DNA from: Candidatus Babeliales bacterium
Lineage (GTDB): Bacteria; Babelota; Babeliae; Babelales; JANWKD01
Direction of reading: 5' to 3'
Length of the DNA stretch: 64,000 nucleotides
NCBI GenBank assembly: GCA_963762115.1
Contig: CAVXJH010000005.1
Location: 64,001 to 128,000, forward strand
The first letter of the stretch is position 1, and the number at the start of each line of letters is the position of its first letter. The notes under the pieces are model-generated. The model ran no database searches. It was not told where the DNA came from and saw nothing but the letters and a program-made list of their open reading frames with translations. Both the position numbers and the translations under genes were made by a program. Positions 560 to 57,936 of this stretch are shown here, one piece after another.

Positions 560-2629
560 ATGAAAAAAAGGCTCATAGTAATAGTATCTTTAATTATCAT
601 TTTTCCCTGTTGTTTAGAAATAGAATCTTCTAAAGCATTACCTGATGTGGTTAAATCGGTTCATGATGTTGTTGCCTATTTTCCAACAACGAGTCAAGAA
701 ATAAGAAACATATCAAATACCACCCAAAAAGAAGTTGAAGAATTAATTTCCACTATAATCAACACTACCCCAAAAGAATATTCATTTAAAACAACTTTTG
801 GTGTTTTAGATAAAGCTTTCGCTCTTATGTCGCGCACAATCAGTCTTTTTGAAATTATTTTTAAACTTAATCCTGATGAAGTTTTACGCAAAATTGCCGA
901 AGATGAAGCCGTGCGATTACAACAACTATTTGTTGATTTAATAGGCCAAAATAAAAATCTTTATAACACCTTATCGGCATATGCAAATACAACATCAAAA
1001 AATGAAGATCTAACTGATTCACAAAAATATTTCATCAAAGAAACCCTTGAAGCATATAGACGTGAGGGATTAGATTTACCTGACGAAAAGCAGGATTTAG
1101 TTAAAAAAATAAAAAAGGAACTTGCAGATCTCTCGTCACTTTTTGATAAAAATATTAATGATGACATAAGAACAATTAAAGTTTCTCGCGAAGCACTCAA
1201 AGGCATTGATGAAGATTTTATTAACGAACTAAAAAAAACGTCTGAAGGTCTCTATATATTAAATATTGATGAGCCGACTTATTATATCATAATGAAACAA
1301 GGTGAAGATGCTCAAACTCGAAAGAAGCTCTTTGAAGCAGTTTTAAGTCTTGCATTTCCTGCAAATATGCACGTTTTAGAAGAGATTATTGCCAAGAGAA
1401 ATGAACTTGCTCAACTCTTGCATTTTCCAAGCTTTGCTCATTTAGATATCGCGGGCCAAATGGCAAAAACACCAGAAACCGTTGAAGCATTTTTAAAAGG
1501 ATTGTTAGAAAAATCAGCAAAAAAAGCTTCTTTAGAATTTGCTGATTTAACAAAGGAATTACCACCCTCAGTAGTGTTAACCCCTGAAGGCAAATTACAA
1601 CCGTGGGATCGCCAATTTCTAGATAATTGGTATATCAAAAAGCATTATGATATTGATCCCTTTAAAATTGCTGAATATTTTCCCATGGAAAAAACTATTG
1701 AAGGGCTTTTTGATATCTACCAACAATTTTTTGATCTTCATTTTGAACAAGTTCCACTCACAGGCTTATGGGATAAAGAATTGAAACTTCTTGAAGTATA
1801 TAAAGATACTCTATTCTTAGGTTATATTATTCTGGATTTACATCCTCGCGATAATAAACGAAAAAATGCTTTTAATACAACATTAATTCCAGCATTGCGA
1901 ACGCATGATCGGAAGATCAATCCTGCACTTACTCTCGTTAATGCAAATTTTCCTAAAGCTACTGCTACAAAACCTTCATTGTTATTACGAATAGATGTAA
2001 GTACCTTTTTTCATGAGTTTGGTCATGCTTTGCACGCCTTACTTGGTGCAACAGAATTAGAATCGCAATCAGGCACCAATGTTAAAACAGATTTTGTTGA
2101 GTTACCCTCGCAAATGCTAGAAGAATGGTTGTTTGATAAAGATATTCTACATAATTTAAGTAGTCATTATAAAACGGACGAAAAATTATCGACTGATGTC
2201 ATTAATACAATAATTTCTTTAAAAAAACTTAATTCTGGCAAATCAACCATTGATCAACTCATTTATTCATATCTTGCTCTCCGTTATTTTGGTTCTGAAA
2301 AACAAAAAGACACGCAAGACATTCTCAAAAATTTACAAGAAACAATTGATGTTCACACACAATATGATCCCAATGATCATTTCCAAACTTCGTTCAATCA
2401 CTTAACCGGCTATGGTGCAAAATATTACAGTTATTTATGGTCACAAGTATTTGCGCTTGATCTCTTTAATGAAATTAAAAAACAGGGCTTACTCAACCCT
2501 ATCATTGGCAAAAAATATAGTGATACTATTTTGAGTAAAGGAGGCAGCAAAGATCCTGAACTGCTCTTAATTGACTTCTTGGGAAGAAAACCAAACTCTG
2601 ATGCATTCTTTAAAGATCTTGGCTTATAG
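560..2629 (+). CDS. M3A oligopeptidase with N-terminal signal peptide
   Basis: FHEFGHALH zinc motif, DFVELPSQMLE, YYSYLWS; hydrophobic N-terminus. Confidence 0.92.
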   Translation: MKKRLIVIVSLIIIFPCCLEIESSKALPDVVKSVHDVVAYFPTTSQEIRNISNTTQKEVEELISTIINTTPKEYSFKTTFGVLDKAFALMSRTISLFEIIFKLNPDEVLRKIAEDEAVRLQQLFVDLIGQNKNLYNTLSAYANTTSKNEDLTDSQKYFIKETLEAYRREGLDLPDEKQDLVKKIKKELADLSSLFDKNINDDIRTIKVSREALKGIDEDFINELKKTSEGLYILNIDEPTYYIIMKQGEDAQTRKKLFEAVLSLAFPANMHVLEEIIAKRNELAQLLHFPSFAHLDIAGQMAKTPETVEAFLKGLLEKSAKKASLEFADLTKELPPSVVLTPEGKLQPWDRQFLDNWYIKKHYDIDPFKIAEYFPMEKTIEGLFDIYQQFFDLHFEQVPLTGLWDKELKLLEVYKDTLFLGYIILDLHPRDNKRKNAFNTTLIPALRTHDRKINPALTLVNANFPKATATKPSLLLRIDVSTFFHEFGHALHALLGATELESQSGTNVKTDFVELPSQMLEEWLFDKDILHNLSSHYKTDEKLSTDVINTIISLKKLNSGKSTIDQLIYSYLALRYFGSEKQKDTQDILKNLQETIDVHTQYDPNDHFQTSFNHLTGYGAKYYSYLWSQVFALDLFNEIKKQGLLNPIIGKKYSDTILSKGGSKDPELLLIDFLGRKPNSDAFFKDLGL

Positions 2630-2666
2630 TAGATGAAAACGTAGACTAATAATGAAAGAAAAAATC

Positions 2667-4739
2667 ATGAAAACTACCATGAAAGTCCTTACAATTATGT
2701 CACTAATTACCCTCAATGCACACTCAAAAAATACTGGTTATCCCCTTGAAATGCCGTTGATTCAATCAACAGCAGATGTTGTCGCTCTATTTCCCAAAAC
2801 ACCTGATGAAATCAAACAACTATCAGAAAATACTCTGGCAAAGGTACAACAACAGATTCAAATGCTTATAGCATTACCCCTACAAGAATTAACCTATGAT
2901 AACACTTTGCGCGCTCTTGATAGGGCAATGGATACTTTTTCCCGCACCACACAAGCCCTAGAGATCATACTACTACTCAGCCCATTCGAACAGCTTCGCA
3001 CGGCAGCGCAAGAAGAAATCATGAAACTACAATCAGCATCTGTTGATTTATTTAATCAAAATAAAGCGTTATATCATATTGTTGCCCACCATGCACAAAC
3101 ACGCGCCATTACTGAAAAATTATCGCCAGAAGAACGATACTTTGAGCAAGAAACATTAAAAGAATTTATGCGTAATGGCCTTGATCAACCAGATGATAAA
3201 CGTGCAATAACAAGTAAATTACAAAAAGAATTAGCCAACCTCTGTACCACTTTTGATAAAAACATTAATGACGACACAACAACTATCACCGTTTCTCCAG
3301 AAGAATTAGATGGCATTGAACAAGATTTTATCAATAATCTCAAAAAAACTGCCGATGGGAATATAATTCTTGGTGTCGATTATCCCACTTACTATAAGAT
3401 TATAGAACAATGCCATAATCAAGAAACTCGTAAAAAGCTCTATCACGCATTCTCCAATCGTGCTTATCCAGCCAATATTGAAATTTTAGAAAAAATAATT
3501 GCTACTCGAGACAAACTAGCACAACAATTGAACATGAAAAGTTATGCCCACCTTAACATAGCAAGTGAAATGGCAAAATCACCCGATACCGTTGAAGAGT
3601 TTCTTCTTGATTTATGGCAAAAAGCGACACAAAAAGAAATGTTAGAAGTTGAGCAACTTAAAGAGGAATTGCCATCTTCTGTCGAACTTTCTCCTGAAGG
3701 GAAAATACAACCCTGGGATAGATTATACCTTGCTGAGATGTATAAAAAAAGAAACTACAACATTGATGAATATGCTATTGCTGAATATTTCCCCATGGAA
3801 AAAACCGTTGAAGGACTACTCAAAATTTATGAAACGTTTTTTAGTATTACTTTTAAACAAGTTTCACTATCAGGGCTATGGCATGAAGACGTAAGAACTC
3901 TGGAAGTGTATCGCGATAAAACTTTATTAGGATATATCCTACTTGACCTTCATCCACGAGATTTTAAATATGGTCATGCTTGTGAAATCACCGTTGTTCC
4001 TGCATTACTTTCAGAACAAAATGAAATCAAGCCTGCTGTCGTCGTTGTTGTTGCAAATTTCCCCAAAGCATCTGCTCATAAACCCTCGCTCTTATCACGA
4101 TCAGATGTAGGAACATTTTTTCATGAATTTGGCCATGCTTTGCATTCTATTTTAGGCGCAACTCGATTAGCATCACAGTCTGGCACCAACACAAAACATG
4201 ATTTTGTAGAAATGCCTTCTCAAATGCTCGAAGAATGGTTATTGGATAAAGATATTTTACGTAACTTAAGCTCTCATTATCAAACAGATGAAAAATTATC
4301 ACCTGACATCATTGAAACATTGCTACAATTGAAAAATTTTAGTTCAGGCACATGGGTTTCTCGACAAATATTTATATCGCTTTTGGCTCTTGAATATTTC
4401 AAAGCAGGCGCACAAAAAGATACGCAAGCAATCATGAAGCAACTACATGAAAAAACACGGTTATACGATCAATATGATCCAAACAATCATTTCCAAGCAT
4501 CATTTGGCCATTTAACCGGTTATGCAGCTCGTTATTATGGTTATTTGTGGTCAAAAGTATTCGCTCTTGATCTTTTTGACACCATAAAACAACATGGTTT
4601 GCTCGATCCAAAAATTGGCGCTCATTATGCGCAAAGTGTTCTGAGTAAAGGTGGCAGTAAAGATCCTAATGAATTGTTGTTTGATTTCTTAGGAAGAAAT
4701 CCTAATAATGAGGCATTTTTACGCGATTTAGGATTATAA
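2667..4739 (+). CDS. M3A oligopeptidase with signal peptide (ORF track start 2652; 2667 preferred by analogy to the previous junction)
   Basis: FHEFGHALH, DLHPRDFKYGHA, DFVEMPSQMLEEW. Confidence 0.92.
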   Translation: MKTTMKVLTIMSLITLNAHSKNTGYPLEMPLIQSTADVVALFPKTPDEIKQLSENTLAKVQQQIQMLIALPLQELTYDNTLRALDRAMDTFSRTTQALEIILLLSPFEQLRTAAQEEIMKLQSASVDLFNQNKALYHIVAHHAQTRAITEKLSPEERYFEQETLKEFMRNGLDQPDDKRAITSKLQKELANLCTTFDKNINDDTTTITVSPEELDGIEQDFINNLKKTADGNIILGVDYPTYYKIIEQCHNQETRKKLYHAFSNRAYPANIEILEKIIATRDKLAQQLNMKSYAHLNIASEMAKSPDTVEEFLLDLWQKATQKEMLEVEQLKEELPSSVELSPEGKIQPWDRLYLAEMYKKRNYNIDEYAIAEYFPMEKTVEGLLKIYETFFSITFKQVSLSGLWHEDVRTLEVYRDKTLLGYILLDLHPRDFKYGHACEITVVPALLSEQNEIKPAVVVVVANFPKASAHKPSLLSRSDVGTFFHEFGHALHSILGATRLASQSGTNTKHDFVEMPSQMLEEWLLDKDILRNLSSHYQTDEKLSPDIIETLLQLKNFSSGTWVSRQIFISLLALEYFKAGAQKDTQAIMKQLHEKTRLYDQYDPNNHFQASFGHLTGYAARYYGYLWSKVFALDLFDTIKQHGLLDPKIGAHYAQSVLSKGGSKDPNELLFDFLGRNPNNEAFLRDLGL

Positions 4740-27943: not shown

Positions 27944-28711
27944 ATGAAAACAGCAAAAAAACTCTTAAGCCTATTTTTTTTATTGACCACTTTACCTCTT
28001 GCAGCAATGGAGGAGACCAGATCTTTAAAACAAAGATTTGATAGCAATATTAACTGGAATCCAAGCACTGAAAGCATGTATAGCTCAGCAGAAGCAACGC
28101 TTCGTGATAAATTACTTGAAATATATCAACTCATCGAAGATATTTTAACTAAAAAAGCCATGGGTGATAACTCTTTCAGCTGGGATCAAATAAACAACCT
28201 GAAGAGAAACCGCAATAAAATTCGAGAAGCATATGAAGATGAAAAAGGAAAGAGACAAGAAAAAGAAAAAAAAGCAGCTCAACCAAGAATAGAAGCCGAA
28301 CGTAAAAAACAACAAGAAGGAGCCGCAAAACAACGGCGTGAATTCGAAGAACGAGCGAGAGCACCACGAACAACTCCTCTTGATCAACAATCTATGCAAA
28401 ATGTCATGAACGAATATTTTAAAACTAATGGCGATAATCCTACCATCAACGAAGCTCTAGCAATGAAACAAGAAAATATTAAAGGAAGTTTAAACTATTT
28501 CTTACCGTTTAAAAGAAGAAACGATCATTCTTATTATAAAACAAATATAACAACAAACCAGCTCAAGCAATTAATTAATGATATACAAGTTGCTCAAATA
28601 AATGGCTTATTGTCTGAGATTACCCAAAATGACATTAATGATTTACAATCTATGCTAAAAGACTCAGAGGAAGAAGATATATTTTTTGCTTCACGAACTC
28701 GTCGAAAATAA
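27944..28711 (+). CDS. Hypothetical exported coiled-coil protein (SP-ME class)
   Basis: ggag RBS; PLAA|MEETR. Confidence 0.7.
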   Translation: MKTAKKLLSLFFLLTTLPLAAMEETRSLKQRFDSNINWNPSTESMYSSAEATLRDKLLEIYQLIEDILTKKAMGDNSFSWDQINNLKRNRNKIREAYEDEKGKRQEKEKKAAQPRIEAERKKQQEGAAKQRREFEERARAPRTTPLDQQSMQNVMNEYFKTNGDNPTINEALAMKQENIKGSLNYFLPFKRRNDHSYYKTNITTNQLKQLINDIQVAQINGLLSEITQNDINDLQSMLKDSEEEDIFFASRTRRK

Positions 28712-30210: not shown

Positions 30211-30388
30211 CGCTTACTTATTTTAAAGTATTTTATGTTAAAATACTAAAAAAGCTTTTATATACGCATAATTTATCATAAAAAATTCATATAGTCAAAA
30301 ATTTAATCTCTATAAAAAATAAGGTGGCTGTTGTTAAAATTACTCATAATAACAGCCAACCTTTATCTTTTAATTATTTCTTACTTAT

Positions 30389-31825
30389 TTATACATTTTC
30401 AGGGTCTTGATCAAACTTAACTTGACCGGGTATAAACTGATGCTGTGCAACAATCATTCTAGAATACCCCATCCCTAATTCTAGGCCACCCCAAAATGCT
30501 GTAAATCCTAAACAAGCAAATCGAGGAGTAGCACCACTGCTTAACGTATTCAATGCTTTATAGGCAAGGTCATAAAAAGAAATTTCTGGATCCATGTATT
30601 TATTCCAAAGCACTGCTGCAAAACCACCTATTCCTAATCCGAGACTAAAGGTTCCTATTCCCTCACCTAATCCTTTTAAACCCTGCATTAAAGTATATTT
30701 ATTCATCAAGGCCTTTATCCGATGTCGTTGACCTTCTAATAGTGTTGGCAATGTTGCACGTAATGCAATCTGTTTTGATTCTGTAGAAAGTGGATTATTG
30801 GTTAAATCAACATAGGAGTGCTCACCAGCTTTAAATGAAGGCAAATCTTTTATTTGGTTATTGTTAAGAAATAACCAAAACTCATATTCTAATTCTCTTG
30901 GCAATACAAGACTTTCAATAACATTCTCACTTGCAAAAAATTTTCTCAAAAAAGGAAAATGTTCGCGCAATTGAGCAACGTCGAGATTTTTTAGTTTATT
31001 TTTATTCAAATTAAGACTAACAACACAAACATTTTCATATTCTTTAGCGAGTAATGCAATGCCATCTAACATATCAATTTTTTGATCATGTATCACAAGA
31101 TCGGCATAGTCAATATCATTATCATTGTTATGACGTACATGACAAAGCACTTTTAAAGCGCCGCTGTTATATAAGCTGCGTATTGAATTTAAATAATGAC
31201 TACATTGCACCAATTCAGGTTGCTCATCATGCGATAAGATATTTTGTGCATGCAATGTTAATTTACGCATTATCTTTTGTGGCGCACCTAAATAATGCCC
31301 TACTTCAAAAACACGAATCAACGATTCTTTATCAAGTTTTTTTATTTCTCTCTTATGAGCAATACAGTTAAAAACTGTTTTTAAGGTTTCAGCACTAAGA
31401 TCAAGGTCAGCTTTACCAGCATTTCCACCATCTTCACAAAATTGCCCTAAAGTAAAATCAAATGTTTTACCCTCAGATGTTTTATCCACAGAAGAATATT
31501 CTTTTTCACCCTCAGGAGCACTTTCTTCTTGAGCATAGTGTAAATAACCTTCAATCAGGACTGATTGCCTGGCAATATACTCTGGAACACCAATTACATT
31601 GCCATCAGTGCCACGAATTGCAATTGTTTGCCCTGGCTTTTGAAATTGACCCTGGCTTGGCATCTGAATTTCTTTTATACTTTGATTATCAATATCACTA
31701 ACTGCACGAATTTGCCTCAAATATGGAAATGATTCAAGCAACCTAGTAACTTCTGGCTGTTCCATTGCCATTAAACCTGAAGAAATCAGGGCAAGAGTTA
31801 AGAATAAATATCTTTTTTTGAACAT
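30389..31825 (-). CDS. Exported Skp1/BTB-like + LRR protein with C-terminal TM hairpin
   Basis: IAIRGTDGNV..V...IARQS.LI, L..VF.C, L.RVFE..HYLG; LxLxxNxL repeats. Confidence 0.75.
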   Translation of the reverse strand: MFKKRYLFLTLALISSGLMAMEQPEVTRLLESFPYLRQIRAVSDIDNQSIKEIQMPSQGQFQKPGQTIAIRGTDGNVIGVPEYIARQSVLIEGYLHYAQEESAPEGEKEYSSVDKTSEGKTFDFTLGQFCEDGGNAGKADLDLSAETLKTVFNCIAHKREIKKLDKESLIRVFEVGHYLGAPQKIMRKLTLHAQNILSHDEQPELVQCSHYLNSIRSLYNSGALKVLCHVRHNNDNDIDYADLVIHDQKIDMLDGIALLAKEYENVCVVSLNLNKNKLKNLDVAQLREHFPFLRKFFASENVIESLVLPRELEYEFWLFLNNNQIKDLPSFKAGEHSYVDLTNNPLSTESKQIALRATLPTLLEGQRHRIKALMNKYTLMQGLKGLGEGIGTFSLGLGIGGFAAVLWNKYMDPEISFYDLAYKALNTLSSGATPRFACLGFTAFWGGLELGMGYSRMIVAQHQFIPGQVKFDQDPENV

Positions 31826-31922
31826 AAAGTCCCCTTTGTTTTAAATATTAAAAATAGAATGATAATATATGATTAATTTTATAGTAAATATACTATTTGT
31901 CAATATTAGACAGGGGGAATTT

Positions 31923-33242
31923 CTAGAAATTTTCCTGTTGCTGATTATCAATCAAAACCTGACCAGGTTTATATTGATGCACGAGATTATTAGGATAACT
32001 GCTTTTATACCCATAATAAATACCCCAAATGCCAAACCCCATACTTAAAGCAACCACTAACCTATGCGTATTTTTATACTCATAAGCAATACATGCGCAT
32101 GCAAGGTCACTTAAAGGATATTCTGAATGCAAAAATTTTTCTCTCATAATATCTATACAAACACCTAAGGACGATCCAAAAACACAAGCCCCCAAACCAA
32201 TACCCAAAAACCTAGACCCATTTAATAATGTATTCCCATCGAAGAATGTCTTTATTCGATGCCGATTCTTCTCTAAAAAACTTGGCATTACAGCAGATAA
32301 AGCAATATTGATTGCCTGACCGGAAAGAGGATTATTGCGTAAATCAACAAGGCCATTTTCGCCAACTTTAAAATGCGGCAACTCTTTTATTTTATTATCA
32401 TTCAAAAGCACAACAGCACCATCAGGTAGCCTTCTTGGCAAAAATAGTTTTTTTCCATGATTGCCGCTCATATGAATTTCATTCACCCCAGGAAAAGTGC
32501 TAAACAAATGCGTAACATCAAGAATTTTTAAATTATTCTTATCAAAAGAAATGCCCTTAATCGTTGCACGCCCATATTCTTCTGCTACCAATTCAATGCC
32601 TTTTAGTGTATCAAGATCTTGACCCTCAATAAAAAGAACACAAGAATCATTATCATCTAAATCAGTTCCTAAGCGATGTATTTTTAAAGCGCCTTCATGG
32701 CGCAAACTACGTAGTGAATTCAAAAACCATCCGGATTTTACGTATTCAGGTTGCTCATGAGAAAGTAAAACTCTTTGTGCTTGATAGGTTAATTTTCGCA
32801 TAACATTTTTTGGAGCACCCAAAAAATCAGTCGCATCAAAAACACGAACTAATGCTTCTTTTGTGTCAATTTTTTTTATTTCTTTGAGATCTGCAATACA
32901 ACTAAAAACTGCTTTTAACGTATCAGCACTCAGATCAAGCGGTTCAAGTTCATCATCTGCACCAACATCATGAAAAATACCGTCATAATTCCCAAATGGT
33001 GGAGTGAAATCTACTATGTGCCCATCAAATGAACATTCCTTTTCACCTGCAGGAGCTGCATCTTCGTGAGCATCACCAAAACAATTGCGAATTGTGCTTG
33101 CTTGCATTGCAACATACCGAGGAACGCCTATCACATTTCCATCAGTACAACGAATTGCAATTGTTGACTTTGGCTTTTCCATTGCATGAGAAAAAAATAC
33201 ACTCAACATACAAACAAAAAATAATTGCTTTTTTAAAAACAT
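31923..33242 (-). CDS. Exported Skp1/BTB-like + LRR protein, paralog 2
   Basis: Same architecture; SHA|MEK; ATG at 33242. Confidence 0.75.
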   Translation of the reverse strand: MFLKKQLFFVCMLSVFFSHAMEKPKSTIAIRCTDGNVIGVPRYVAMQASTIRNCFGDAHEDAAPAGEKECSFDGHIVDFTPPFGNYDGIFHDVGADDELEPLDLSADTLKAVFSCIADLKEIKKIDTKEALVRVFDATDFLGAPKNVMRKLTYQAQRVLLSHEQPEYVKSGWFLNSLRSLRHEGALKIHRLGTDLDDNDSCVLFIEGQDLDTLKGIELVAEEYGRATIKGISFDKNNLKILDVTHLFSTFPGVNEIHMSGNHGKKLFLPRRLPDGAVVLLNDNKIKELPHFKVGENGLVDLRNNPLSGQAINIALSAVMPSFLEKNRHRIKTFFDGNTLLNGSRFLGIGLGACVFGSSLGVCIDIMREKFLHSEYPLSDLACACIAYEYKNTHRLVVALSMGFGIWGIYYGYKSSYPNNLVHQYKPGQVLIDNQQQENF

Positions 33243-33274
33243 ACTCAAAACCCAATCACTATAATAAAAAAATT

Positions 33275-34588
33275 TTAATTAGTTGCTTCTTTTTCGCCAT
33301 CTTCATCTTGATCAACAACAGCCTGACCAGACCTGAATTGATACTGCATATTATGATTCAGGGCTTGTGGAAAAACATGCCCAATATAAAACGCCACCGT
33401 TGTAGTAAGAGGCCAAGAAAATAATACTGCTACAAACAAAGGATTTCTACAATGGTCATACAACATGGGTAGAAGTGGTTCAGAGCGAAAAATTTTAAAT
33501 GCACCAAGGGGAAGGCCAACAAATATTCCTGAATAAATTACAAAACCTGCTCCCGTACGCAACATTACATAAGGATCAACGAGTGTTTTAAACACGGGAC
33601 GATGTTTTTGAAAAATAGTAGGCTTCTTAATGATTACATCAGGATTAATTTTTAGCTTATTATGCTTAAGACTTACCACGGCTTGCTCAGGAATAAAAAA
33701 AGTTTCTTCATCAAGACAATTATGATTTAATCGCACACTCACAAAATGCGGCAATGAGGATGGCCAAATTACTTTAGTTGTACCATTATTATTTGCCTTA
33801 ATTTTTTGCAACCCAGGCCAACAAGCAAATAATAATCTAATATTCAGCGTTTTAAGATTATTATCGCTAAGATTTAAACGTGTCACTGAGGGACATGCTA
33901 GAGCAACCTCTTCAATACCTGCCAATGTATCAATTTGACGTGATTGCAACGGTAAAGAATTGATTATTTTCGCACAATGAATCGAACTTGCTAGACGATT
34001 GCTTTTAAACAATTGTTTTATGGTAGTGAAATAATGCCCTTCATCTAACATTGCATAAAGCGGATTTTCGCTGTTATCTCTAAATTCTTTTTTAGAAATG
34101 AGAGAAGATGCACGTTGCGACAATTGCTGCATTATATTTTCTGAAACGCCCAAACAATGTGCCACTTCAAAAACATACATCACGTCTTCTTTATCAAGTT
34201 GTTCTATATTTTTTTCATCGGCGATACAATCAAAAAGTATCTTTAATGTTGCGGTGTTAAGATCAAGAGCTTCCACTTCTTCACGAGTACTAAAAACCCG
34301 ATTGAAAACATGTTGAGTGAAATCTACGGTGCGCACATCAAATGAACATTCTTTTTCTCCTGCAGGGGCTGCATCTTCATGAGCATCATCAAAATAATTC
34401 CGAATTGTGCTTGCTTGCATTGCAACATCTTGAGTAACGCCAAATATTCTTCCATCAGTGCCGCGAATAGCAATTGTTTGCATTGGTTTCTGCACTTCTT
34501 GTTGTTCCATACCATATACAACACATTGCGCCATTAAAAGTATGTATAAAAAAATATATCGATTACGTATTATAGAACCAACTTTCAT
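33275..34588 (-). CDS. Exported Skp1/BTB-like + LRR protein, paralog 3
   Basis: Same architecture; VYG|MEQ; LNLSDNNL. Confidence 0.75.
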   Translation of the reverse strand: MKVGSIIRNRYIFLYILLMAQCVVYGMEQQEVQKPMQTIAIRGTDGRIFGVTQDVAMQASTIRNYFDDAHEDAAPAGEKECSFDVRTVDFTQHVFNRVFSTREEVEALDLNTATLKILFDCIADEKNIEQLDKEDVMYVFEVAHCLGVSENIMQQLSQRASSLISKKEFRDNSENPLYAMLDEGHYFTTIKQLFKSNRLASSIHCAKIINSLPLQSRQIDTLAGIEEVALACPSVTRLNLSDNNLKTLNIRLLFACWPGLQKIKANNNGTTKVIWPSSLPHFVSVRLNHNCLDEETFFIPEQAVVSLKHNKLKINPDVIIKKPTIFQKHRPVFKTLVDPYVMLRTGAGFVIYSGIFVGLPLGAFKIFRSEPLLPMLYDHCRNPLFVAVLFSWPLTTTVAFYIGHVFPQALNHNMQYQFRSGQAVVDQDEDGEKEATN

Positions 34589-34599
34589 AAGTATTAAGA

Positions 34600-35787
34600 T
34601 TATTCTGGTATACCTTCTTGATCATCGGTCAAAATCTGACCTGGCTGAAAAATATCTTCTTCTGACCGATCAAAAATGCATCCTGCTCCAAGCGTCAAAA
34701 AAGTACCAACAACAGATTCAAATAAAAAAAGTTTTTGAAAAAATGCATCATCAATAAAGCCTTTATCTAAATAACGGAGTACAAGGACTGCCTCAGCATG
34801 TGCTGGAAAAGTGGCTAAAAAAAGCGGCTCCGCCAACATTCTTTTACAAGGTTGTGTATAAGGTCTATAACGTTCCAACAATGTTGGTTGCACTGCATAC
34901 TGACAAACTTGCAATGATTGCTCAGAAAACTTTCTGTATATATATTTCCATCCTCTCCGCAAATCAACAATCCCTTTTTCACCAATTTTAAACCTCGGCA
35001 GTTCTTGGATAGGATTGCAAATAAGATCAAGTCGAAAATTATCCGGCAATCTGTTGGGCATAATAAGACGTTCAATACGATTATTAGAGGCAATAAGCAC
35101 TTGCAAATTTGGCAATAATTCCAATAACTGCATAACATTAAGCACTTTTATTCTATTTGCTACTAAACTGAGAGAAATAATATTCTTATTGTTAAGATGC
35201 TGCTTTGCTATTGCATCAATCCCTATCAATGAATCAATTTTTTGTTTTTCAATTTTGAGTCTGTGTTCAGATTGATCTAATTCAATTTTTAAACAATTCT
35301 TACCGTGTAAATATCGTATTGAACGCACATAATAATCATTTTGTACCAATTCAGGCTGTTCATCAAATAGTACTAATTCCTGAATATAACAACTTAATAA
35401 ACGCATGAATTTTTTAGAAGCACCGAGAACCTCCCCTGCATCAAATACAGAAATTAATGATTTATTTTCAAGATTTTTTATTTTCTTTTTTGAATCTACA
35501 CAGGCAAATAATGCTGACAAGATATTACTGCCTAAATCAGTGTATTCAGCTCCATCATCACTTTCCATAAGCTCGACTACAACGTTAGCTTCATCAGATT
35601 GTTGAGATACATCAAAATATTCATGAAATCTACTTAACTTTGTCTCCACACCATTCGGAACTTCTACCATTTTTCCATCAGAACATTGAATTGCGATAGT
35701 CTTTTGTGGCATTTCTTCCATACCATGCATACACAAAAAAATTATAAAAAAGCTACAACAAAAAAGGCCATGTTTTATGTATGACAT
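34600..35787 (-). CDS. Exported Skp1/BTB-like + LRR protein, paralog 4
   Basis: TIAIQCSDGKMVEV; LSLVANRI, LIASNNRI; weaker C-terminal hydrophobic segments. Confidence 0.75.
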   Translation of the reverse strand: MSYIKHGLFCCSFFIIFLCMHGMEEMPQKTIAIQCSDGKMVEVPNGVETKLSRFHEYFDVSQQSDEANVVVELMESDDGAEYTDLGSNILSALFACVDSKKKIKNLENKSLISVFDAGEVLGASKKFMRLLSCYIQELVLFDEQPELVQNDYYVRSIRYLHGKNCLKIELDQSEHRLKIEKQKIDSLIGIDAIAKQHLNNKNIISLSLVANRIKVLNVMQLLELLPNLQVLIASNNRIERLIMPNRLPDNFRLDLICNPIQELPRFKIGEKGIVDLRRGWKYIYRKFSEQSLQVCQYAVQPTLLERYRPYTQPCKRMLAEPLFLATFPAHAEAVLVLRYLDKGFIDDAFFQKLFLFESVVGTFLTLGAGCIFDRSEEDIFQPGQILTDDQEGIPE

Positions 35788-47118: not shown

Positions 47119-48580
47119 CTACTCTTTACCCACATTTTTACTATAATTAACGAGATACAGAGTTAATATATCAAAAAAAGAAAAGTAAAAAATGATTAAA
47201 GAATTGTGGGCAGCAAATGAGACTAATCGTATGTCATTAAAAGATAAACGCAGAAATGAAAGAGTTAGAATACTTCTAGAGGCCGTTGCCGATAGCCCAT
47301 CAGCAAGCATTTTACAAGCTTGCAACGGAGAAAATGCACAAGCAAAAGGTGCTTATCGTTTTCTTGCCACAACAGAAATTGATGAACAAGATATTCTCGA
47401 AGGACATTATCAAGCAACCGTCGAAAGAGCTGAAAATGCTGATGGAAAAGTCATTATTGTTAGCGATGGCATGGATGCATCTTTTAAAAATCTTAAAAAA
47501 ACTTCAGGGTTAGGAACTCTATCTAATACAAAAAGTTCACTTGGAATAAAAGTTCAAAATACGTATGTATTTAGTGAAAATTTTATTCCATTAGGGCTAA
47601 TAAATCAAAAGTATTGGATACGCAATAAAGAAGATTTTGGCAAAAAAAAACATAAGCTAAGGTTGCCTACAAAGGAAAAAGAATCTTATAATTGGATTGA
47701 ATCAATTTATCAAATAGAAAAAAAGCTTCCTATAAATAAAAGCTATTTATTTATAGGTGATGGTGGTGCCGATATTTATGATTTATTAACAGCAGAAAGG
47801 CGTGTAAATAGCGATTTACTCATTCATCTTGTGCAAAATAGAAATATACAGAACGAAGAAGAGCGTCTCTTTGAATTGCTGGAAAAACAATCAGTATTAG
47901 GCGTTATAACGAAAGAATTAGAACGTACAAAAACTCATTCTAAGAGAACTGCAAAGTTAGCGATTAGAGTCAAAGAAGTCGAAATTTGTTCTCCTTTAAA
48001 TCGAAAAAATGAAAAATTACCAACCATACATTTAACAGCGATTTATGTGCAAGAAATAGAATATGACAACTCAGTAAATGATCCAATAGTATGGCGACTT
48101 ATTACTACGATTAAAGTTCAATCATTGGAAGAAGCTGAAAAGCTTATTGCCCTTTACTCAAAACGTTGGCTCATTGAACGCTATCATTATATTTTAAAAG
48201 AAGGTTGTCGCATAGAAAAATTTCAAATGGAATCGGTTGATAACCTAAAAAGAACCTTGGCTGTTTACTCAATTGCTGCCTGGCGTTTAATTTATATCAC
48301 TTATCTTGCAAGAATTAAACCTGATGCCCCATGTAATTTAATTCTTACAACCGATGAAGCTGATGCGTTATATTGCACGCATCATAAAACTCTTACATTG
48401 CCCCCCAAATCTTTTTCTGTTAAAGAAGCAACTCAAATGATAGCAAAATTAGGAGGTTTTCTTGGCAGGAAAAACGATAAAGATCCTGGTGCAAAAGTTT
48501 TGTGGCAGGGATTATTTCGGCTAGAAGCCATTACACAAGCTTATCTTTTATTTAAAGAACTAAATGTGGGTAAAGAGTAG
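47119..48580 (+). mobile_element. IS4-family (IS50/Tn5-like) insertion sequence
   Basis: Perfect 19-bp TIRs ctactctttacccacattt (47119-47137, 48562-48580); 8-bp target duplication catatacg (47111-47118, 48581-48588). Confidence 0.95.
47192..48580 (+). CDS. IS4-family transposase
   Basis: D.RRN.R, AYRFL, KES..W, Y..RW.IE.YH..LK.GC..E, LGGFLGRK.D..PG; stop codon lies in the right TIR. Confidence 0.95.
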   Translation: MIKELWAANETNRMSLKDKRRNERVRILLEAVADSPSASILQACNGENAQAKGAYRFLATTEIDEQDILEGHYQATVERAENADGKVIIVSDGMDASFKNLKKTSGLGTLSNTKSSLGIKVQNTYVFSENFIPLGLINQKYWIRNKEDFGKKKHKLRLPTKEKESYNWIESIYQIEKKLPINKSYLFIGDGGADIYDLLTAERRVNSDLLIHLVQNRNIQNEEERLFELLEKQSVLGVITKELERTKTHSKRTAKLAIRVKEVEICSPLNRKNEKLPTIHLTAIYVQEIEYDNSVNDPIVWRLITTIKVQSLEEAEKLIALYSKRWLIERYHYILKEGCRIEKFQMESVDNLKRTLAVYSIAAWRLIYITYLARIKPDAPCNLILTTDEADALYCTHHKTLTLPPKSFSVKEATQMIAKLGGFLGRKNDKDPGAKVLWQGLFRLEAITQAYLLFKELNVGKE

Positions 48581-50355: not shown

Positions 50356-50652
50356 ATGTCAGAATTTGAAAACATGCAACCATTAAGCGATAAGGCTTTG
50401 GTAAAACGTCTTGAAAATGAAGCAATGACACCAGGCGGACTCTTTATTCCTGATGCAGCCAAAGAAAAAGGCCAAAAAGGCACCGTTCTTGCTGTTGGTC
50501 CCGGTCGGACTACCCCAGAAGGAAAAACTATTCCTCTTGCTATTAAAGCAGGTGATATTGTTTATTTTGGCAAATATGCCGGCACTGAAGCTGGCAGTGA
50601 TTATCTCATTATCCGTGAAGATGAGATTTTAGGTGTCGTTAAAACAGCATAA
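50356..50652 (+). CDS. groES: Co-chaperonin GroES
   Basis: PL.D...VKR, T.GGL.IPD.AKEK, AVGPG, KYAGTE. Confidence 0.96.
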
Positions 50653-50677
50653 TATAAAAAACAGATTAGGAGTTATT

Positions 50678-52327
50678 ATGGCAGGAAAACGTATCGTTTT
50701 TGGCGTGGAAGCCCGCGGAAAAATTCGTGATGGTGTTGACATATTGGCTGATGCCGTAAAAGTCACCCTCGGACCTCGGGGTCGCAATGTTGCTTTTGAA
50801 AAAGCATTTGGCTCACCAACAATCACCAAAGATGGTGTTACTGTTGCAAAAGAAATTGAACTTCCCAATAAACTTGAAAACATGGGCGCACAAATGGTGC
50901 GTGAAGTTGCTAGCAAAACTGCTGAAGTAGCTGGTGATGGCACCACAACAGCAACAGTTTTAGCGCAAGCAATTTTCCGCGAAGGTAACAAATATGTTAC
51001 TGCAGGCGCAAATCCAATGGAATTAAAACGCGGCATCGACAAAGCTGTGCATGCTGTTGTTGAATTCATTAAAAATAATGCAAAAAAAGTAAGTTCAAAA
51101 AAAGAAATTGAACAAGTTGCAACGATTTCTGCAAATTCTGATACCATTATTGGTCAACAAATTGCTGAAGCAATGGACCGTGTAGGCCGCGATGGCGTTA
51201 TCACCGTTGAAGAAGCAAAAGGCATGGAAGATTCATTAGAAGTTGTTGAAGGTATGCAATTTGATCGTGGTTATCTTTCACCTTATTTCATCACTGATGC
51301 AGAAAAAATGGAAACGGTGTTACATGATGCAATGATTCTTCTTTATGAAAAGAAGATCAGCAGCATGAAGAGCTTGTTACCTCTTCTTGAACAAGTTGCA
51401 CGTTCTGGTCGTCCACTTTTGATTATTGCTGAAGATGTTGAAGGCGAAGCTCTTGCAACGCTTGTAGTGAACAAAATTCGCGGCACTCTTAATGTTGCTG
51501 CGGTAAAAGCTCCTGGCTTTGGTGATCGTCGCAAAGCGATGTTAGAAGATATCGCCATGTTAACCGGCGGTAAATTAATTACTGAAGATATCGGCATCAA
51601 GCTTGAGAACGTTACCTTGGATGATCTTGGTCATGCAAAAAAAATAGTAATCACCAAAGATACCTGCACCATTATTGAAGGCCAAGGAAGCTCTGAGAGC
51701 ATTAAAGGACGTATTGCATTAATCAAAGCGCAAATCGAAGCAACAGCTTCTGATTACGACAAAGAAAAATTGCAAGAACGCCTTGCCAAACTTGCTGGCG
51801 GTGTTGCTGTCATCAAAGTTGGTGCTGCAACTGAAACAGAAATGAAAGAAAAAAAAGATCGCATCGACGATGCATTGAATGCAACCAGAGCTGCTGTTGA
51901 AGAAGGTGTTGTTGCTGGTGGCGGTGTTCTTTATATCAGAGCACAAGAATCTGTAAACGCACTTAAACTTGAAGGCGATGAGAAATTTGGTGCACAAATT
52001 GTTGCACGTGCTTTAGAAGAACCTTTGCGAGTAATCGTATCTAATGCGGGCGACGAAGCATCAGTTATTGTCAATCGCATAAAAAACGAAAAAGGCACTA
52101 TTGGTTATGATGCAAAAAACAGCAAATTCGTTGATATGTTCGAAGCTGGCATCATCGATCCAGCCAAGGTTGAGCGCACTGCATTGCAAAATGCTGCATC
52201 AATCGCTGGTCTTTTGTTAACAACAGAAGTTACCATTTCTGATTTGCCCGATGACAAAAAAGAATCGCAAGGTCACGCTGGCATGCCTCCAATGGGTGGT
52301 ATGGGCGGCATGGGTGGCATGTATTAA
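50678..52327 (+). CDS. groEL: Chaperonin GroEL
   Basis: [29 protein letters not shown] tail; aggag RBS before ATG 50678. Confidence 0.98.
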
Positions 52328-53880: not shown

Positions 53881-54651
53881 TCATTTCATATAATAATGCA
53901 TAAGCGCTGCATTAACTTCTTCTGCTTCATTATAATTTTTTGCATCAAGCAATTTTTGTGAAAAATCAAAATAAAATTCCACGATCCTTCGTTTAAAATG
54001 GTGGTTATCTTCAGGTTTATCCAAATAACTCAATGCCTTTATAAGGTATGGCTGTCTTTCAAAAAGTTCCTGTTTAACGCTCTTATAGCTTTCTTCATAT
54101 AACTGCTGAAGTAAAAAATTCAGATTTATATCAATATTCATTTTTGCATTCAAAGCACATTGCCTTAAAAAAGTTTCACTTTTATCAACTGAAAGCTTCC
54201 TTGTTGGTTCCAGTTCCCCGTTACATAACACGCTTATAGGCGATTCATTATTATTTGAAAAACCTGTATTACTCAATTGCTGCAGAGAATTCTTACCTAA
54301 ATTTTCTCTATTACTTTCACTTAGCTTAGATTTTTGTTCTTTACGAAATTTTACTACTGCATCTAAGCCTGCAGTATCATACATATATCTCTCAAATGGA
54401 TCTTCCAGTATTTCATACGCCTCTTTCAATTGCGCATGTTGCTCTTCAGCTTCTTCATAAACAGTAAAGGGCAATCTCATGGTAATTCGAAGATACTCTT
54501 GAGTATAAATACGAAAACTCTTTACTACTGCTTCATGATTTGCATCTTTGTTAAGTCCCAAACGAACATATAAATCATCATTATGGTGTTCCATAGCGTT
54601 TAAGATTTTGAAAAAGATTAAAACAAAAATAAAAATTATTTTTCTGCTCAT
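53881..54651 (-). CDS. Exported J-domain-like protein lacking HPD
   Basis: DLY..LGL..DA...., L.EAYEIL.DP..R..YD..G. Confidence 0.75.
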   Translation of the reverse strand: MSRKIIFIFVLIFFKILNAMEHHNDDLYVRLGLNKDANHEAVVKSFRIYTQEYLRITMRLPFTVYEEAEEQHAQLKEAYEILEDPFERYMYDTAGLDAVVKFRKEQKSKLSESNRENLGKNSLQQLSNTGFSNNNESPISVLCNGELEPTRKLSVDKSETFLRQCALNAKMNIDINLNFLLQQLYEESYKSVKQELFERQPYLIKALSYLDKPEDNHHFKRRIVEFYFDFSQKLLDAKNYNEAEEVNAALMHYYMK

Positions 54652-54774
54652 ATTAAAAACAACCTAGAAAAATTATTAATACGACAATATGATGTTGTAG
54701 TATATAATGTTTAATAATATTGCAATAGATTTACACAAAAGATGCTTCTCGTAATGATAAAAATATTTTTTTTA

Positions 54775-55317
54775 TTATGTATTCTTTAAAAATTCTGGTA
54801 AATCAGAAAGACCTTCATTCAAAAAATCTATATTTTCTTCCATTTCTGTTATATCGATTATTTCTTTATCAAATGTATCATGATGAATATTTTCAGTTGT
54901 TTGATTTTGTTGCAATGCATCTAATGGCATCATTGGTATCAACTTCACGCTAGGATTCAATAACTGTGCAACATATGACATATGTTCATAAAATTCATTT
55001 GGCTCTTTCACTTCAGAAGTAGTCAATCCCATCTTCTCATCATAGGCTTTCCTCTTTTGCCGATCTGATAGAATATTGTATGCCATTCTAATAGTATCAA
55101 ATTTTTCCTCGACTTTTTCATCTATTACATTTAAAGATTGCATCGTTTTATGCAAAAAATATTTTGTTAACCTAAGGTAACGTTTCTCTATTGCATAAGG
55201 AGTTGCATTACGAGCAACCCCCAAAATTTTATATAAATTAATTTCCTTTTGCTGCTCCATAGCTATCAAGCCTATAGAACAAGTCAAAAAAGCTAAAAAT
55301 AACATTATTTTCTTCAT
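54775..55317 (-). CDS. Exported J-domain-like protein lacking HPD
   Basis: NLYKILGV.RNA...I...Y, F..I..AY.ILSD..KR..YD. Confidence 0.78.
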   Translation of the reverse strand: MKKIMLFLAFLTCSIGLIAMEQQKEINLYKILGVARNATPYAIEKRYLRLTKYFLHKTMQSLNVIDEKVEEKFDTIRMAYNILSDRQKRKAYDEKMGLTTSEVKEPNEFYEHMSYVAQLLNPSVKLIPMMPLDALQQNQTTENIHHDTFDKEIIDITEMEENIDFLNEGLSDLPEFLKNT

Positions 55318-55387
55318 AAGAGTCCCTATTAAAAACTATACTTCAATATAAAATGAACAAAAAAATGATGTACAACAAACATATCAA

Positions 55388-57673
55388 TTACAATGATAAA
55401 TCAATGACGTCTCCCAATATATCTTGCGTATCTTGCTCAGAAAGACCTTCTTGATTAGACAAATCTTGCGCTAATTGGGCTTGTACTTTTATTGCATTTA
55501 ATTTTTCGGTCAAAATACCTGTTTGATAAGTGGTTAGTGCAGCATCAATAACTTGAATTGCATTGTCATAACGATTTTCTTGAAGCAATTCCCTGGCAAA
55601 ATTAAGATAAAAACCAATAATTTCTTGTTCTAATCCATTTCTATAATGAGGTTCTAGATTAGATATTAATCGTATAAAATGTTGTTGTTCTGCTAAAAGA
55701 GCTGATTGAACATAAGAAATGGTTTTATTACTGCATCTCATTACATGCACACTAGTTTGTAATACTTCCAATTTCTTTAAAACTTCATTAGCAGTAGAAC
55801 TAACAAAACGATAAAGATGAACCGCTTCTATTCTTTGTAAGGCAGAAGGCTCACTCCATTTGACACCACAAACATATTCCAAAAGATCATGCGCTCCATT
55901 GATGATACCGTTATTGTATAAAGTAGTAAAAAATTTAAAACAATTATCAAACGCCTCATATTGTAAATCTAAAGGAATTTCTAAAAAATTCTTCATCGTA
56001 TCAACGAATTTTATCGATGGGTTAAAACGATATTGATCTATTAATGCTTTAATTCGGTTATGATAGTTATCTATTTTCTGAGAATAAAATCCCTTTTCCT
56101 TATCCATTGATAATGCTATTTGAAGTGTTATTAGACAACTGTTAGCATTCTTGATCCTATCTTGAACATCAACATAATTTCTATTTTTGGTATCGATATC
56201 ATTTTTTCCTTCAAGACGAATAATATTTTGTAATTGAAAACATTTTTTTTTAAATTCATCATTACTCGCTGCATAAGAACTCCGACAAAGATTCTGAATA
56301 ATTCTCATAGCTTCATTAAATTTTTTATTTTTAGCCAATCGTTCAGCAAGTAAATAACTAAATTTAAAAACATAATCATTAAGATAAGTAAGCTTGAATT
56401 CCATTACATGCTTACAAAAAAGAAGTAACCCTTTATGCACAAAATCAAGTGGCATTGTTGAATTAGCAAAAGAAAAATTCAAATACCCCAAATCATTATA
56501 CCAACCCATTAAAATGTTTTTTATGTTTCCTTGAGCTTTTTCCACTTCCAATTGCCATACCTTGTCTTCTTCACTCTGAAAAGATGAAACATGTTTTAAA
56601 ACTTCACCACATAATTCATAGGCACTCTGAACAAAAAATAAAAAATCTGGTTGATTTTCATGCTTCTGATAAAGCATTTCAGCAGCATTAAAAGCAAGTC
56701 TAAGAAATTCTTTTTTTGCTTCTAAAAAGTTAGGATTGACTCTCAGCTCAGAAGATCTTTCAGAAATATAATATTTATTTGCAACATTTTTAAATTTTTC
56801 ATGAAAAAACAATGGATCAATTTTTTGAGTTTTAGCGAGCTCTGTTTCCCGGCGTAAATCAGCATTAGCCTCTTGCACTGCTTCAATAGTTGCTTTAACA
56901 TTTTTTGGATCTACAATTTTTCTTTTTTTCACAGGAGGAGCATGTTTTTTCATTGCTTCTTCAATCAACCGTTTTTCACGTGATTGAGCATAAGTAGCAT
57001 GAACTGCTGGTGTATTATTTTTTTGCACATATAATGCATACAAATTTTTTAATCTATCAGCAAAGTCTGTTTCTGAACCCACATACCGTAGCCCATTGGC
57101 AATATAACACTTTGCCTCATCAATACAATCTCTTTCATATAACAATTGAGCAAATTGAAGACAATTTTCTAAAAAATTCACCCTAAGTGCTTTGCAACAA
57201 TCATCATCATTATTATTCATTATATATTGTCTATATAATTCATTGGCAGCATCAATCTCAGGTTTCAATACATTAATATCGGGTTGCATAGAAAAAATAC
57301 TTCTAATTTTTGTTTGATACGCATCTCTTTTATGCAGAATATCTTCAAACGCAACCTTTTGGGCAACATTATCACGATTATGTAAGTCGTAATACCTTTT
57401 CCAATGATCACCATATTTATCATAAAAGTTTCTTTTTTCAGGATCACGCAAAACATCATGAGCATTATTTATCTCTTTAAATATCTCTCCCCCATAAAGA
57501 TTTTTACTAGGATGATATTGTTTTGCTAAAGCACGGTATTTTTCCTTAATGCTTTCTTGATTTGCAGTTCTTTCAACACCTAAAATAGTATAATAATCTC
57601 TCGGTTGCCCCTCCATGCCTTGTAACCCTTTAAAACAGGCTAAAAAGAGTAAAAAAACTATTGTTTTTTTCAT
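55388..57673 (-). CDS. Exported J-domain (HPS variant) protein with helical repeats and NLS-like motif
   Basis: DYYTILGV...YRALAKQYHPSKN...FKEINNAHDVL.DPEKR.FYDKYG; PPVKKRKI; start moved to 57673. Confidence 0.82.
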   Translation of the reverse strand: MKKTIVFLLFLACFKGLQGMEGQPRDYYTILGVERTANQESIKEKYRALAKQYHPSKNLYGGEIFKEINNAHDVLRDPEKRNFYDKYGDHWKRYYDLHNRDNVAQKVAFEDILHKRDAYQTKIRSIFSMQPDINVLKPEIDAANELYRQYIMNNNDDDCCKALRVNFLENCLQFAQLLYERDCIDEAKCYIANGLRYVGSETDFADRLKNLYALYVQKNNTPAVHATYAQSREKRLIEEAMKKHAPPVKKRKIVDPKNVKATIEAVQEANADLRRETELAKTQKIDPLFFHEKFKNVANKYYISERSSELRVNPNFLEAKKEFLRLAFNAAEMLYQKHENQPDFLFFVQSAYELCGEVLKHVSSFQSEEDKVWQLEVEKAQGNIKNILMGWYNDLGYLNFSFANSTMPLDFVHKGLLLFCKHVMEFKLTYLNDYVFKFSYLLAERLAKNKKFNEAMRIIQNLCRSSYAASNDEFKKKCFQLQNIIRLEGKNDIDTKNRNYVDVQDRIKNANSCLITLQIALSMDKEKGFYSQKIDNYHNRIKALIDQYRFNPSIKFVDTMKNFLEIPLDLQYEAFDNCFKFFTTLYNNGIINGAHDLLEYVCGVKWSEPSALQRIEAVHLYRFVSSTANEVLKKLEVLQTSVHVMRCSNKTISYVQSALLAEQQHFIRLISNLEPHYRNGLEQEIIGFYLNFARELLQENRYDNAIQVIDAALTTYQTGILTEKLNAIKVQAQLAQDLSNQEGLSEQDTQDILGDVIDLSL

Positions 57674-57936
57674 AAAACCCCTAAAAATCATATTTTTTAT
57701 AGTAGTATAATCAAATTTACATAATTTCATTATAGCTATTTATTTATATTTGTCAATTTTAAAAAAAATAAATAAAAAAATTAACCAATAAGTAAGCCAT
57801 AATCATTATGGAAACCAAAGCTCGATTTAATTGACAAATAACGGCTGATCATTATATTGTGACTAAGATTCCTAAAAAGAGTCTTCTAGAGCTGCTACCT
57901 TAAGCAAAGCAACTTTTATCTTGACTAGGAGAATCT

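Follow-up and report, generated by a model that had tools for sequence, protein, structure and literature searches.

Four tandem genes for Skp1-like, leucine-rich repeat proteins

We analysed a 64-kb window (the whole stretch of 64,000 nucleotides, positions 64,001 to 128,000 of contig CAVXJH010000005.1) from a Candidatus Babeliales bacterium, a member of the phylum Babelota, whose known hosts are protists (PMC12172432). Our profile, PDB and genome comparisons were centred on positions 30389..35787, for which an initial annotation had proposed four tandem proteins combining a Skp1/BTB domain, leucine-rich repeats (LRR) and a membrane hairpin, as candidate single-chain adaptors for host cullin ubiquitin ligases. 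The observation itself is confirmed: four minus-strand open reading frames (ORFs; 478, 441, 437 and 395 aa) fill this interval and are real paralogues, the other three being 42, 33 and 36% identical to the first (30389-31825). We refer to them as A to D in order of transcription (Table 1); the intergenic gaps in that order are 11, 26 and 97 bases. The source genome (G000; 1.53 Mb, 7 contigs, ~34% GC) has a completeness of 95%.

All four genes encode a hydrophobic N-terminus followed by a small residue and Met-Glu, in agreement with the signal peptides proposed earlier, and all four share a TIAI(R/Q)xxDG start, a P(T/S)xx(E/Q)xxR linker, hydrophobic segments and a terminal (F/Y)x(P/S)GQxxxD. 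The consensus first drawn for them was slightly idealised: its main motifs occur in every copy, with small departures in that the (Q)(S/A)xxI and LKxxFxC letters are missing from 34600-35787, two of the four read VFD instead of VFE, and the linker of one gene has Q in place of E. Single-sequence Pfam scans of the four returned nothing above cut-off; below it, Skp1_POZ reached E 0.15 in one protein (paralogue B) and LRR families E 0.008-0.04 in three (LRR_8 at E 0.008 in paralogue B). Identity between copies is 24-54% in the Skp1 part, 29-48% in the LRR and 11-25% in the insert. For the Skp1 part, ratios of nonsynonymous to synonymous substitution rates (dN/dS) lie at 0.29-0.62, and for the LRR at 0.20-0.68; dS is close to saturation.

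At the syntenic position, a genome of the same genus (G001) has only two genes, and duplication of a single gene is therefore the probable source of the larger array. Paralogue A is the probable counterpart of the first gene of the G001 locus. Paralogues B, C and D cluster with one G001 gene in a domain tree (support 85; 107 rows, 127 columns, quick method), and their DNA is 66-71% identical over the Skp1 part.

Table 1. Positions of the four paralogues and their parts in the 64-kb window
Feature	Position	Strand	Remarks
Paralogue A, first transcribed	34600..35787	-	395 aa; most eroded cullin face, shortest insert
Paralogue A, signal-like start	35722-35787	-	
Paralogue A, Skp1-like domain	35362-35712	-	
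Paralogue B	33275..34588	-	437 aa; Skp1-like domain, LRR, two uncharged segments
Paralogue B, signal-like start	34511-34588	-	
Paralogue B, Skp1-like domain	34079-34489	-	
Paralogue C, modelled protein	31923..33248	-	441 aa
Paralogue C, signal-like start	33183-33248	-	
Paralogue C, Skp1-derived POZ core	32757..33176	-	model pLDDT 82.8, Foldseek, VIA, PDB profile searches
Paralogue C, short irregular LRR	32283..32657	-	predicted model and structure matches
Paralogue C, Gly-rich, moderately hydrophobic helical insert, likely membrane hairpin	31977..32237	-	model helices and hydropathy
Paralogue C, terminal (F/Y)x(P/S)GQ motif, predicted last LRR strand	31941..31976	-	model strand 408-410
Paralogue D, last transcribed	30389..31825	-	478 aa; extra N-terminal segment
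Paralogue D, signal-like start	31766-31825	-	
Paralogue D, Skp1-like domain	31226-31639	-	

Ancestry of the N-terminal domain and its wider family

The AlphaFold2 model of mature paralogue C, built on an alignment of 17 sequences, has a mean predicted local distance difference test (pLDDT) score of 79.9 and comprises a POZ-like domain, a short LRR, four helices (316-402) and a final strand (408-410). The domain modelled alone reached pLDDT 82.8, and its POZ core is predicted to have three strands, five helices and long acidic loops. Skp1's two C-terminal F-box-binding helices are absent from the model, in which helix A5 leads through two short helices into the LRR; the family-profile match to Skp1 likewise stops just past the A4-A5 turn. 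With the domain alone, Foldseek placed Skp1 first (E 2.3e-3, template modelling (TM) score 0.55), in keeping with the POZ fold suspected from the sequence, and no match against PDB fell below E 0.001 for either the whole model or the domain. The best VIA match was 1ldk_D (Z 10.2, root-mean-square deviation (rmsd) 3.0, 99 aligned), and 50 of 50 rows were BTB-fold proteins. Since BTB domains came within 1 Z unit of Skp1 (9.6 vs 10.2), structure fixes the superfamily only; Elongin C, at Z 8.8, was the closest match by rmsd (1.8 with 77 aligned) and by identity (21%).

In profile searches against PDB, Skp1 occupied the top 33 of 44 rows with a 17-domain family profile (best E 4.7e-4) and the top 33 of 42 rows with a 29-domain profile containing no member of the WD40-type group described below (best E 6.5e-10; first non-Skp1 row at E 1.4e-3). 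Elongin C ancestry was rejected: no Elongin C row appeared at E up to 10 in these searches. Helix A5, absent from the Elongin C core, is present in the model (residues 123-139). With a profile of other Babelota Skp1 domains, the four scored 22.6, 22.0, 11.8 and 11.4 bits, compared with at most 7.5 bits among 1000 shuffles. Judged from these profiles, the N-terminal domain derives from Skp1, not from a generic BTB domain or Elongin C, and is fused to an LRR, which sharpens the Skp1/BTB identity originally given; homology to Skp1 above other BTB families is apparent at the level of the family profile, single proteins staying below the Pfam cut-off. In the domain tree, 26 of 29 LRR-family domains fall together (support 80), and the donor is not placeable. 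An atlas match to eukaryotic BTB-LRR proteins scored 0.84, under 0.9, and is a lead only.

These proteins belong to a wider Skp1 family in Babelota, where PF03931 matches 45 of 251 genomes, against 0 of 14 control genomes. The source genome contains three more clear paralogues and two weak ones, and it yielded a further 18 proteins that have a Skp1-like domain. Seven of the ten PF03931 loci that we read encode a signal peptide, a Skp1 core and WD40 repeats (six Pfam-confirmed, one partial). In 20 of 72 such domains (one hit spurious, no control) the core is succeeded by a loosely defined, F-box-like helix of the LPxE type. The WD40-type profile matches Dictyostelium Skp1A at E 6.5e-29 and the LRR-family profile with a match probability of 98.4%. 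Among 1.84 billion representatives searched, there were 237 matches at E up to 0.001. The best 150 of these include 95 with the family LRR, of which 66 begin with a signal-like sequence and 71 show a hydrophobic segment near the C-terminus, and 38 with neither signal nor LRR, most of which score high against a eukaryotic Skp1 profile. The full-length LRR-family profile matched 60 of 261 genomes, many via the LRR alone. A single-protein scan of 185,579 genomes, which detects close relatives only, gave three loci, all in Babeliales, and a word-index homologue search recovered only 2 of the window's own proteins. A pattern search for Skp1 fusions confirmed none in viral contigs, and the absence of cullin PF00888 matches (0/261 genomes) is uninformative because the control was also without a match. 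The Skp1-WD40 group is the stronger case for true Cul1 hijacking, with the four as its diverged, probably membrane-anchored branch.

The combination of signal, Skp1 core, F-box-like helix and WD40 repeats recurs, often in tandem, at L036, L037, L038, L041, L043-L045 and L194-L213; Skp1-WD40 loci mostly have intact cullin-face motifs, and L041 and L198 include two Skp1 domains. Elsewhere in the source genome, a stand-alone 191-aa signal-bearing Skp1-like protein scores above the Pfam cut-off (G000:C3:33816-34391) and is a candidate Skp1 decoy, and two paralogues combine a Skp1-like with a second, BTB-like domain (G000:C3:57474-62256), one with a loop, MQES, that resembles phi-x-E. Family members are interrupted or truncated at L029 (G004:C2), L023 and L025; at L029 a transposase-like ORF separates the Skp1 part from the LRR part, which fits birth-and-death turnover. 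Two LRR proteins at L035 (G050:C4:1-1900) carry SLQxLA after the signal, a stretch that resembles a BC-box and is without Pfam support.

Cullin-contact face, membrane insert and export signal

The NYLD turn of Skp1 touches Cul1 and is homologous to region iii of KLHL3. Skp1 also contacts Cul1 through PxPN in strand B3 (PMC1257465), and KLHL3 touches Cul3 with segments that correspond to helix A2 and strand B3, each with its loop, and to the A4-A5 turn (PMC3616122). Three features were scored, namely PxP, the N of the turn and the D/N of the turn. Eukaryotic Skp1 keeps all three in 6 of 6 sequences. The counts are 28, 33 and 46 among 53 non-LRR domains from relatives, which were picked with PF03931, a profile spanning PxPN but not the turn, and 3, 7 and 11 among 19 non-LRR domains from the source genome. 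For the LRR family we compared 93 domains (2 of the 95 were dropped for short envelopes). Helix A2 has K/R in 60 and D in 42; the commonest letters of strand B3 are I-D-F (37, 34 and 57), and those of the A4-A5 turn A-D-Y-L (77, 54, 56 and 71), with the consensus ADYL(G/E/Q) followed by A. Near-canonical motifs survive in a few LRR members (P0180, P0146). In the A2-B3 loop, which carries phi-x-E in Cul3-binding BTB domains, ~7 of 17 aligned members have a KE motif with a variable first residue; in the three window genes with this motif that residue is non-hydrophobic, and no clear phi-x-E is seen. Compared in this way, members of the LRR family share a new conserved pattern in the cullin-side segments, and these segments are further eroded in the four.

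In the model of paralogue C (31923-33248), the LRR consists of some five short strands, to which the terminal motif adds a sixth. VIA alignments of the LRR extend to model residues 410-419 in 49 of 50 rows. The terminal GQ motif is accordingly predicted to follow the insert as the closing part of the LRR, and this return of the C-terminus would leave both ends on the same side of a hairpin. The best structural matches of the LRR are of the Slit, LRRTM, Nogo-receptor and SDS22 types. FBXL2 ranks only 40 of 50 and no F-box Pfam match at E up to 1 was found in any of the four, which weakens the comparison with FBXL receptors drawn originally. The insert of paralogue C is Gly-rich, with helices 316-402 at pLDDT 50-86. 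Across 26 family members (one truncated member was dropped), peak hydropathy reached at least 1.5 in 20 C-terminal thirds vs 1 remainder of the protein. The insert likely enters a membrane, and its low hydropathy would suit a protein that first crosses the bacterial membrane. On moderate hydropathy, the anchoring proposed initially is plausible.

Signal-like starts, called by a home-made rule, occur in 646 of 1410 ORFs of the source genome. In 296 ORFs, vs 67 expected, a small residue and Met come right after the hydrophobic stretch; the next residue is E, D, N or Q in 187 of these (63% vs 20% background), 118 of them reading Met-Glu. Ends of the Met-Glu type fit the specificity of eukaryotic NatB. 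Specificity of N-terminal acetyltransferases (Nat) follows the first two residues (PMC12700197), and the Met-Glu ends may be taken as a lead for cytosolic delivery. Within the window, signals ending in Met-Glu/Asp/Asn/Gln are also found at 27944-28711 and 53881-57730, a possible export signature or host N-acetylation tag. The source genome encodes two secretins and two T2SSE-family ATPases. For Chromulinavorax, reported features are the use of Sec, signals on 78% of ankyrin proteins and the shedding of vesicles (PMC6561590).

Proposed role, rival readings and known systems

We propose that these proteins, combining a Skp1 domain, an LRR and an insert, are exported, membrane-seated, one-chain adaptors for a host cullin ligase, a reading that we hold to be about evenly balanced between right and wrong. 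After Sec export they would be released by a secretin or vesicles and enter the membrane of the vacuole or of a host organelle, leaving their Skp1 domain and LRR on the cytosolic side. The LRR would capture a nearby host protein, and the Skp1 domain would dock on the cullin N-terminus, replacing Skp1 plus F-box. The cullin face would be retuned rather than canonical, with Cul1 as the default by ancestry and Cul3 as the main alternative, and each of the four copies would have its own target or membrane. The sister Skp1-WD40 fusions have the layout of a receptor in Skp1-cullin-F-box (SCF) ligases, which we count in favour of an adaptor.

A number of observations tell against this proposal, above all at the cullin face. 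The 29 LRR-family domains keep PxP in 1, the turn N in 6 and the turn D/N in 0, the four genes keep each of these features in 0/4, and each proline of PxP is present in just 6 of 93 LRR-family domains, vs 6 of 6 eukaryotic Skp1 sequences. In the four the turn reads DFLG, HYLG, HCLG and EVLG, more eroded than the family ADYL; the K/R..D pair of helix A2 is also gone in 2/4, and most conserved positions are hydrophobic, which may reflect a structural role. The initial annotation had named a non-conserved cullin-contact surface as evidence against its reading, and this holds in part, PxPN being absent and NYLD changed in 4/4. Such a consistently changed face argues against a canonical Skp1-Cul1 contact and leaves either a retuned contact or lost binding, and a canonical Cul1 adaptor role for the four is doubtful. 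The insert is only moderately hydrophobic: its family median is 1.74, whereas polytopic proteins have 1.97 in their segments. A value of 1.5 is also reached by 46% of 376 proteins that lack a signal and by 22 of 55 non-LRR Skp1 fusions. As to export, the signal peptides were called by the home-made rule, a Sec signal alone leads only to the periplasm, and neither FHIPEP (the type III export gate) nor TrbI (VirB10) was found in the 95% complete source genome.

If binding was lost, the Skp1 domain would be a folding cap or new binding module, and the proteins membrane-tethered LRR binders that would enlist or obstruct host proteins with no link to ubiquitin. The loss of PxPN and NYLD in 4/4, a turn that differs among the four, large insertions around strand B3, and the same LRR and insert without a Skp1 domain at L024:6865, L031:3754, L169:1414 and L179 all fit this account; yet the Skp1 domain is under purifying selection, occurs in at least 93 clusters at 50% identity and shows family-wide letters on the cullin-side segments, and we regard the account as unlikely. 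We think it quite unlikely that the proteins are cullin-binding decoys, which would tie up a cullin at a membrane or push Skp1 aside, thereby protecting the vacuole or keeping host substrates stable, with no ubiquitination of targets. A membrane insert in multiple copies would suit a sink, the source genome has its stand-alone exported 191-aa Skp1-like protein (C3:33816-34391), and viral proteins are described as occupying the Cul3 BTB site without host adaptors (PMC13769053), but a decoy has no need for a variable LRR, and the LRR has been kept and diversified (29-48% identity).

It is very unlikely, in our estimate, that the proteins remain in the bacterial envelope, as inner membrane anchors or in vesicles, and never meet a cullin. 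Their evident signal is of the Sec type only, no type III or IVA marker was found in the source genome, and 44% of Chromulinavorax proteins carry a signal (PMC6561590). However, PF03931 matched 0 of 14 control genomes, and typical inner-membrane segments exceed the insert in hydrophobicity. To our knowledge, Skp1 has no known partner in bacteria. The sister fusions retain cullin-face motifs, which implies arrival in the host cytosol by the same kind of signal.

Combining adaptor and repeat on one chain has precedents. The earlier argument for novelty, that known bacterial SCF mimics use F-boxes and not Skp1 itself, overlooked PEX1 of Protochlamydia, a 73-member BTB-LRR family described in a 2014 survey in which Chlamydiae were the sole bacteria with BTB-type domains (PMC4209131). 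Like the four, PEX1 proteins come from an amoeba-associated bacterium, are encoded by expanded tandem genes, have an N-terminal BTB fold and C-terminal LRRs, and were proposed to recruit a host cullin ligase. By description they are set apart by a Pfam-called BTB domain and by the type III signals of the expanded chlamydial families, whereas the four have a Skp1-derived domain, a Sec-like signal and a hydrophobic insert and belong to another phylum. With eukaryotic Skp1 (PDB 1ldk, 7t1z, 6v88; PMC1257465) the four share a homologous core fold, the N-terminal strands and, in the model, the lack of a long-form dimerisation extension; they differ in lacking the F-box-binding C-terminal helices, in the LRR fusion, in the replaced PxPN and NYLD, and in the signal peptide. 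The Cul3 adaptors KLHL3 and SPOP also join a cullin-binding fold and a substrate repeat on one chain (PMC3616122), but Pfam gave no BACK match in the four, the model has no N-terminal extension and only two short helices after A5, phi-x-E is not clear, and sequence points to Skp1. Amoeba-associated bacteria also have F-box effectors (Legionella AnkB, Neochlamydia NEX1 and a Babela F-box protein), repeat proteins by which targets are brought to host SCF; they need host Skp1, which the four would replace. Giant-virus SKP1/BTB proteins place such folds in protist parasites, with a best match of E 7.3e-4 (a Pandoravirus BTB, BFVD) at the fold level only. Chlamydial Inc proteins, which are type III substrates, have a variable, bilobed hydrophobic segment whose two ends lie on the same side. 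Any likeness of the four to them would be one of layout.

In the available text on Babela and TM6, F-box, RING, WD40 and LRR proteins are named, with no BTB/POZ in the main text and Skp1 in one reference title only (PMC4378268, PMC4776705), and the main text of a Legionella effector atlas has no Skp1, BTB, POZ or cullin (PMC11696984). The literature searched, with supplements and most subscription journals outside its scope, gave nothing relevant on Skp1, BTB or POZ in Babelota, no residue-level Cul1 contacts for the NYLD turn and no viral Skp1 homologue, and the 20 best of 269 matches in the general mimic literature included no Skp1-fused effector. The BTB-LRR architecture is therefore already known from Protochlamydia, while a Skp1 origin, a Sec-type signal and a membrane insert were not found in that literature. 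Known bacterial SCF hijackers rely on F-boxes and on the Skp1 of the host, whereas effectors fused to Skp1 would take the adaptor's own place. With this family, BTB-type domains are present in a second parasite phylum, from a donor family other than that of Chlamydiae. The range from intact to rebuilt cullin faces would form a natural series for how cullin specificity changes. Moreover, the family would give Babelota a first effector class with a name and with predictions that experiments can address, and a way of approaching protein delivery without an evident type III or IVA system. A broader scenario, which we offer tentatively and consider somewhat improbable as a whole, is that Skp1 was taken from a eukaryote and became a Babelota-wide kit of one-chain SCF mimics bypassing host Skp1. 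A soluble WD40 branch, with Skp1 core and F-box-like helix, would keep the Cul1 face, a membrane LRR branch would be rebuilt for another or diverged cullin, and the Sec signal would leave a Met-Glu end as a host-cytosol signature in well over a hundred proteins of the source genome.

The array is flanked by a TLC ATP/ADP transporter gene downstream and an MFS gene upstream. A terminator-like inverted repeat with a T run follows the last gene (30211-30388), and a C-rich stretch at 31826-31922 could pair with the G-rich ribosome site before 30389-31825; an Rfam scan of the window gave 0 matches. On the minus strand at 53881-57730, close to a chaperonin gene pair (50356-52327), three tandem signal-bearing Met-Glu proteins with DnaJ domains are candidate exported co-chaperones. 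A Tn5/IS4-type transposase at 47192-48580 has a copy of the same start and length at G000:C3:422848. Two tandem signal-bearing proteins of ~690 aa lie at 560-4739, the first of them an M3 peptidase.

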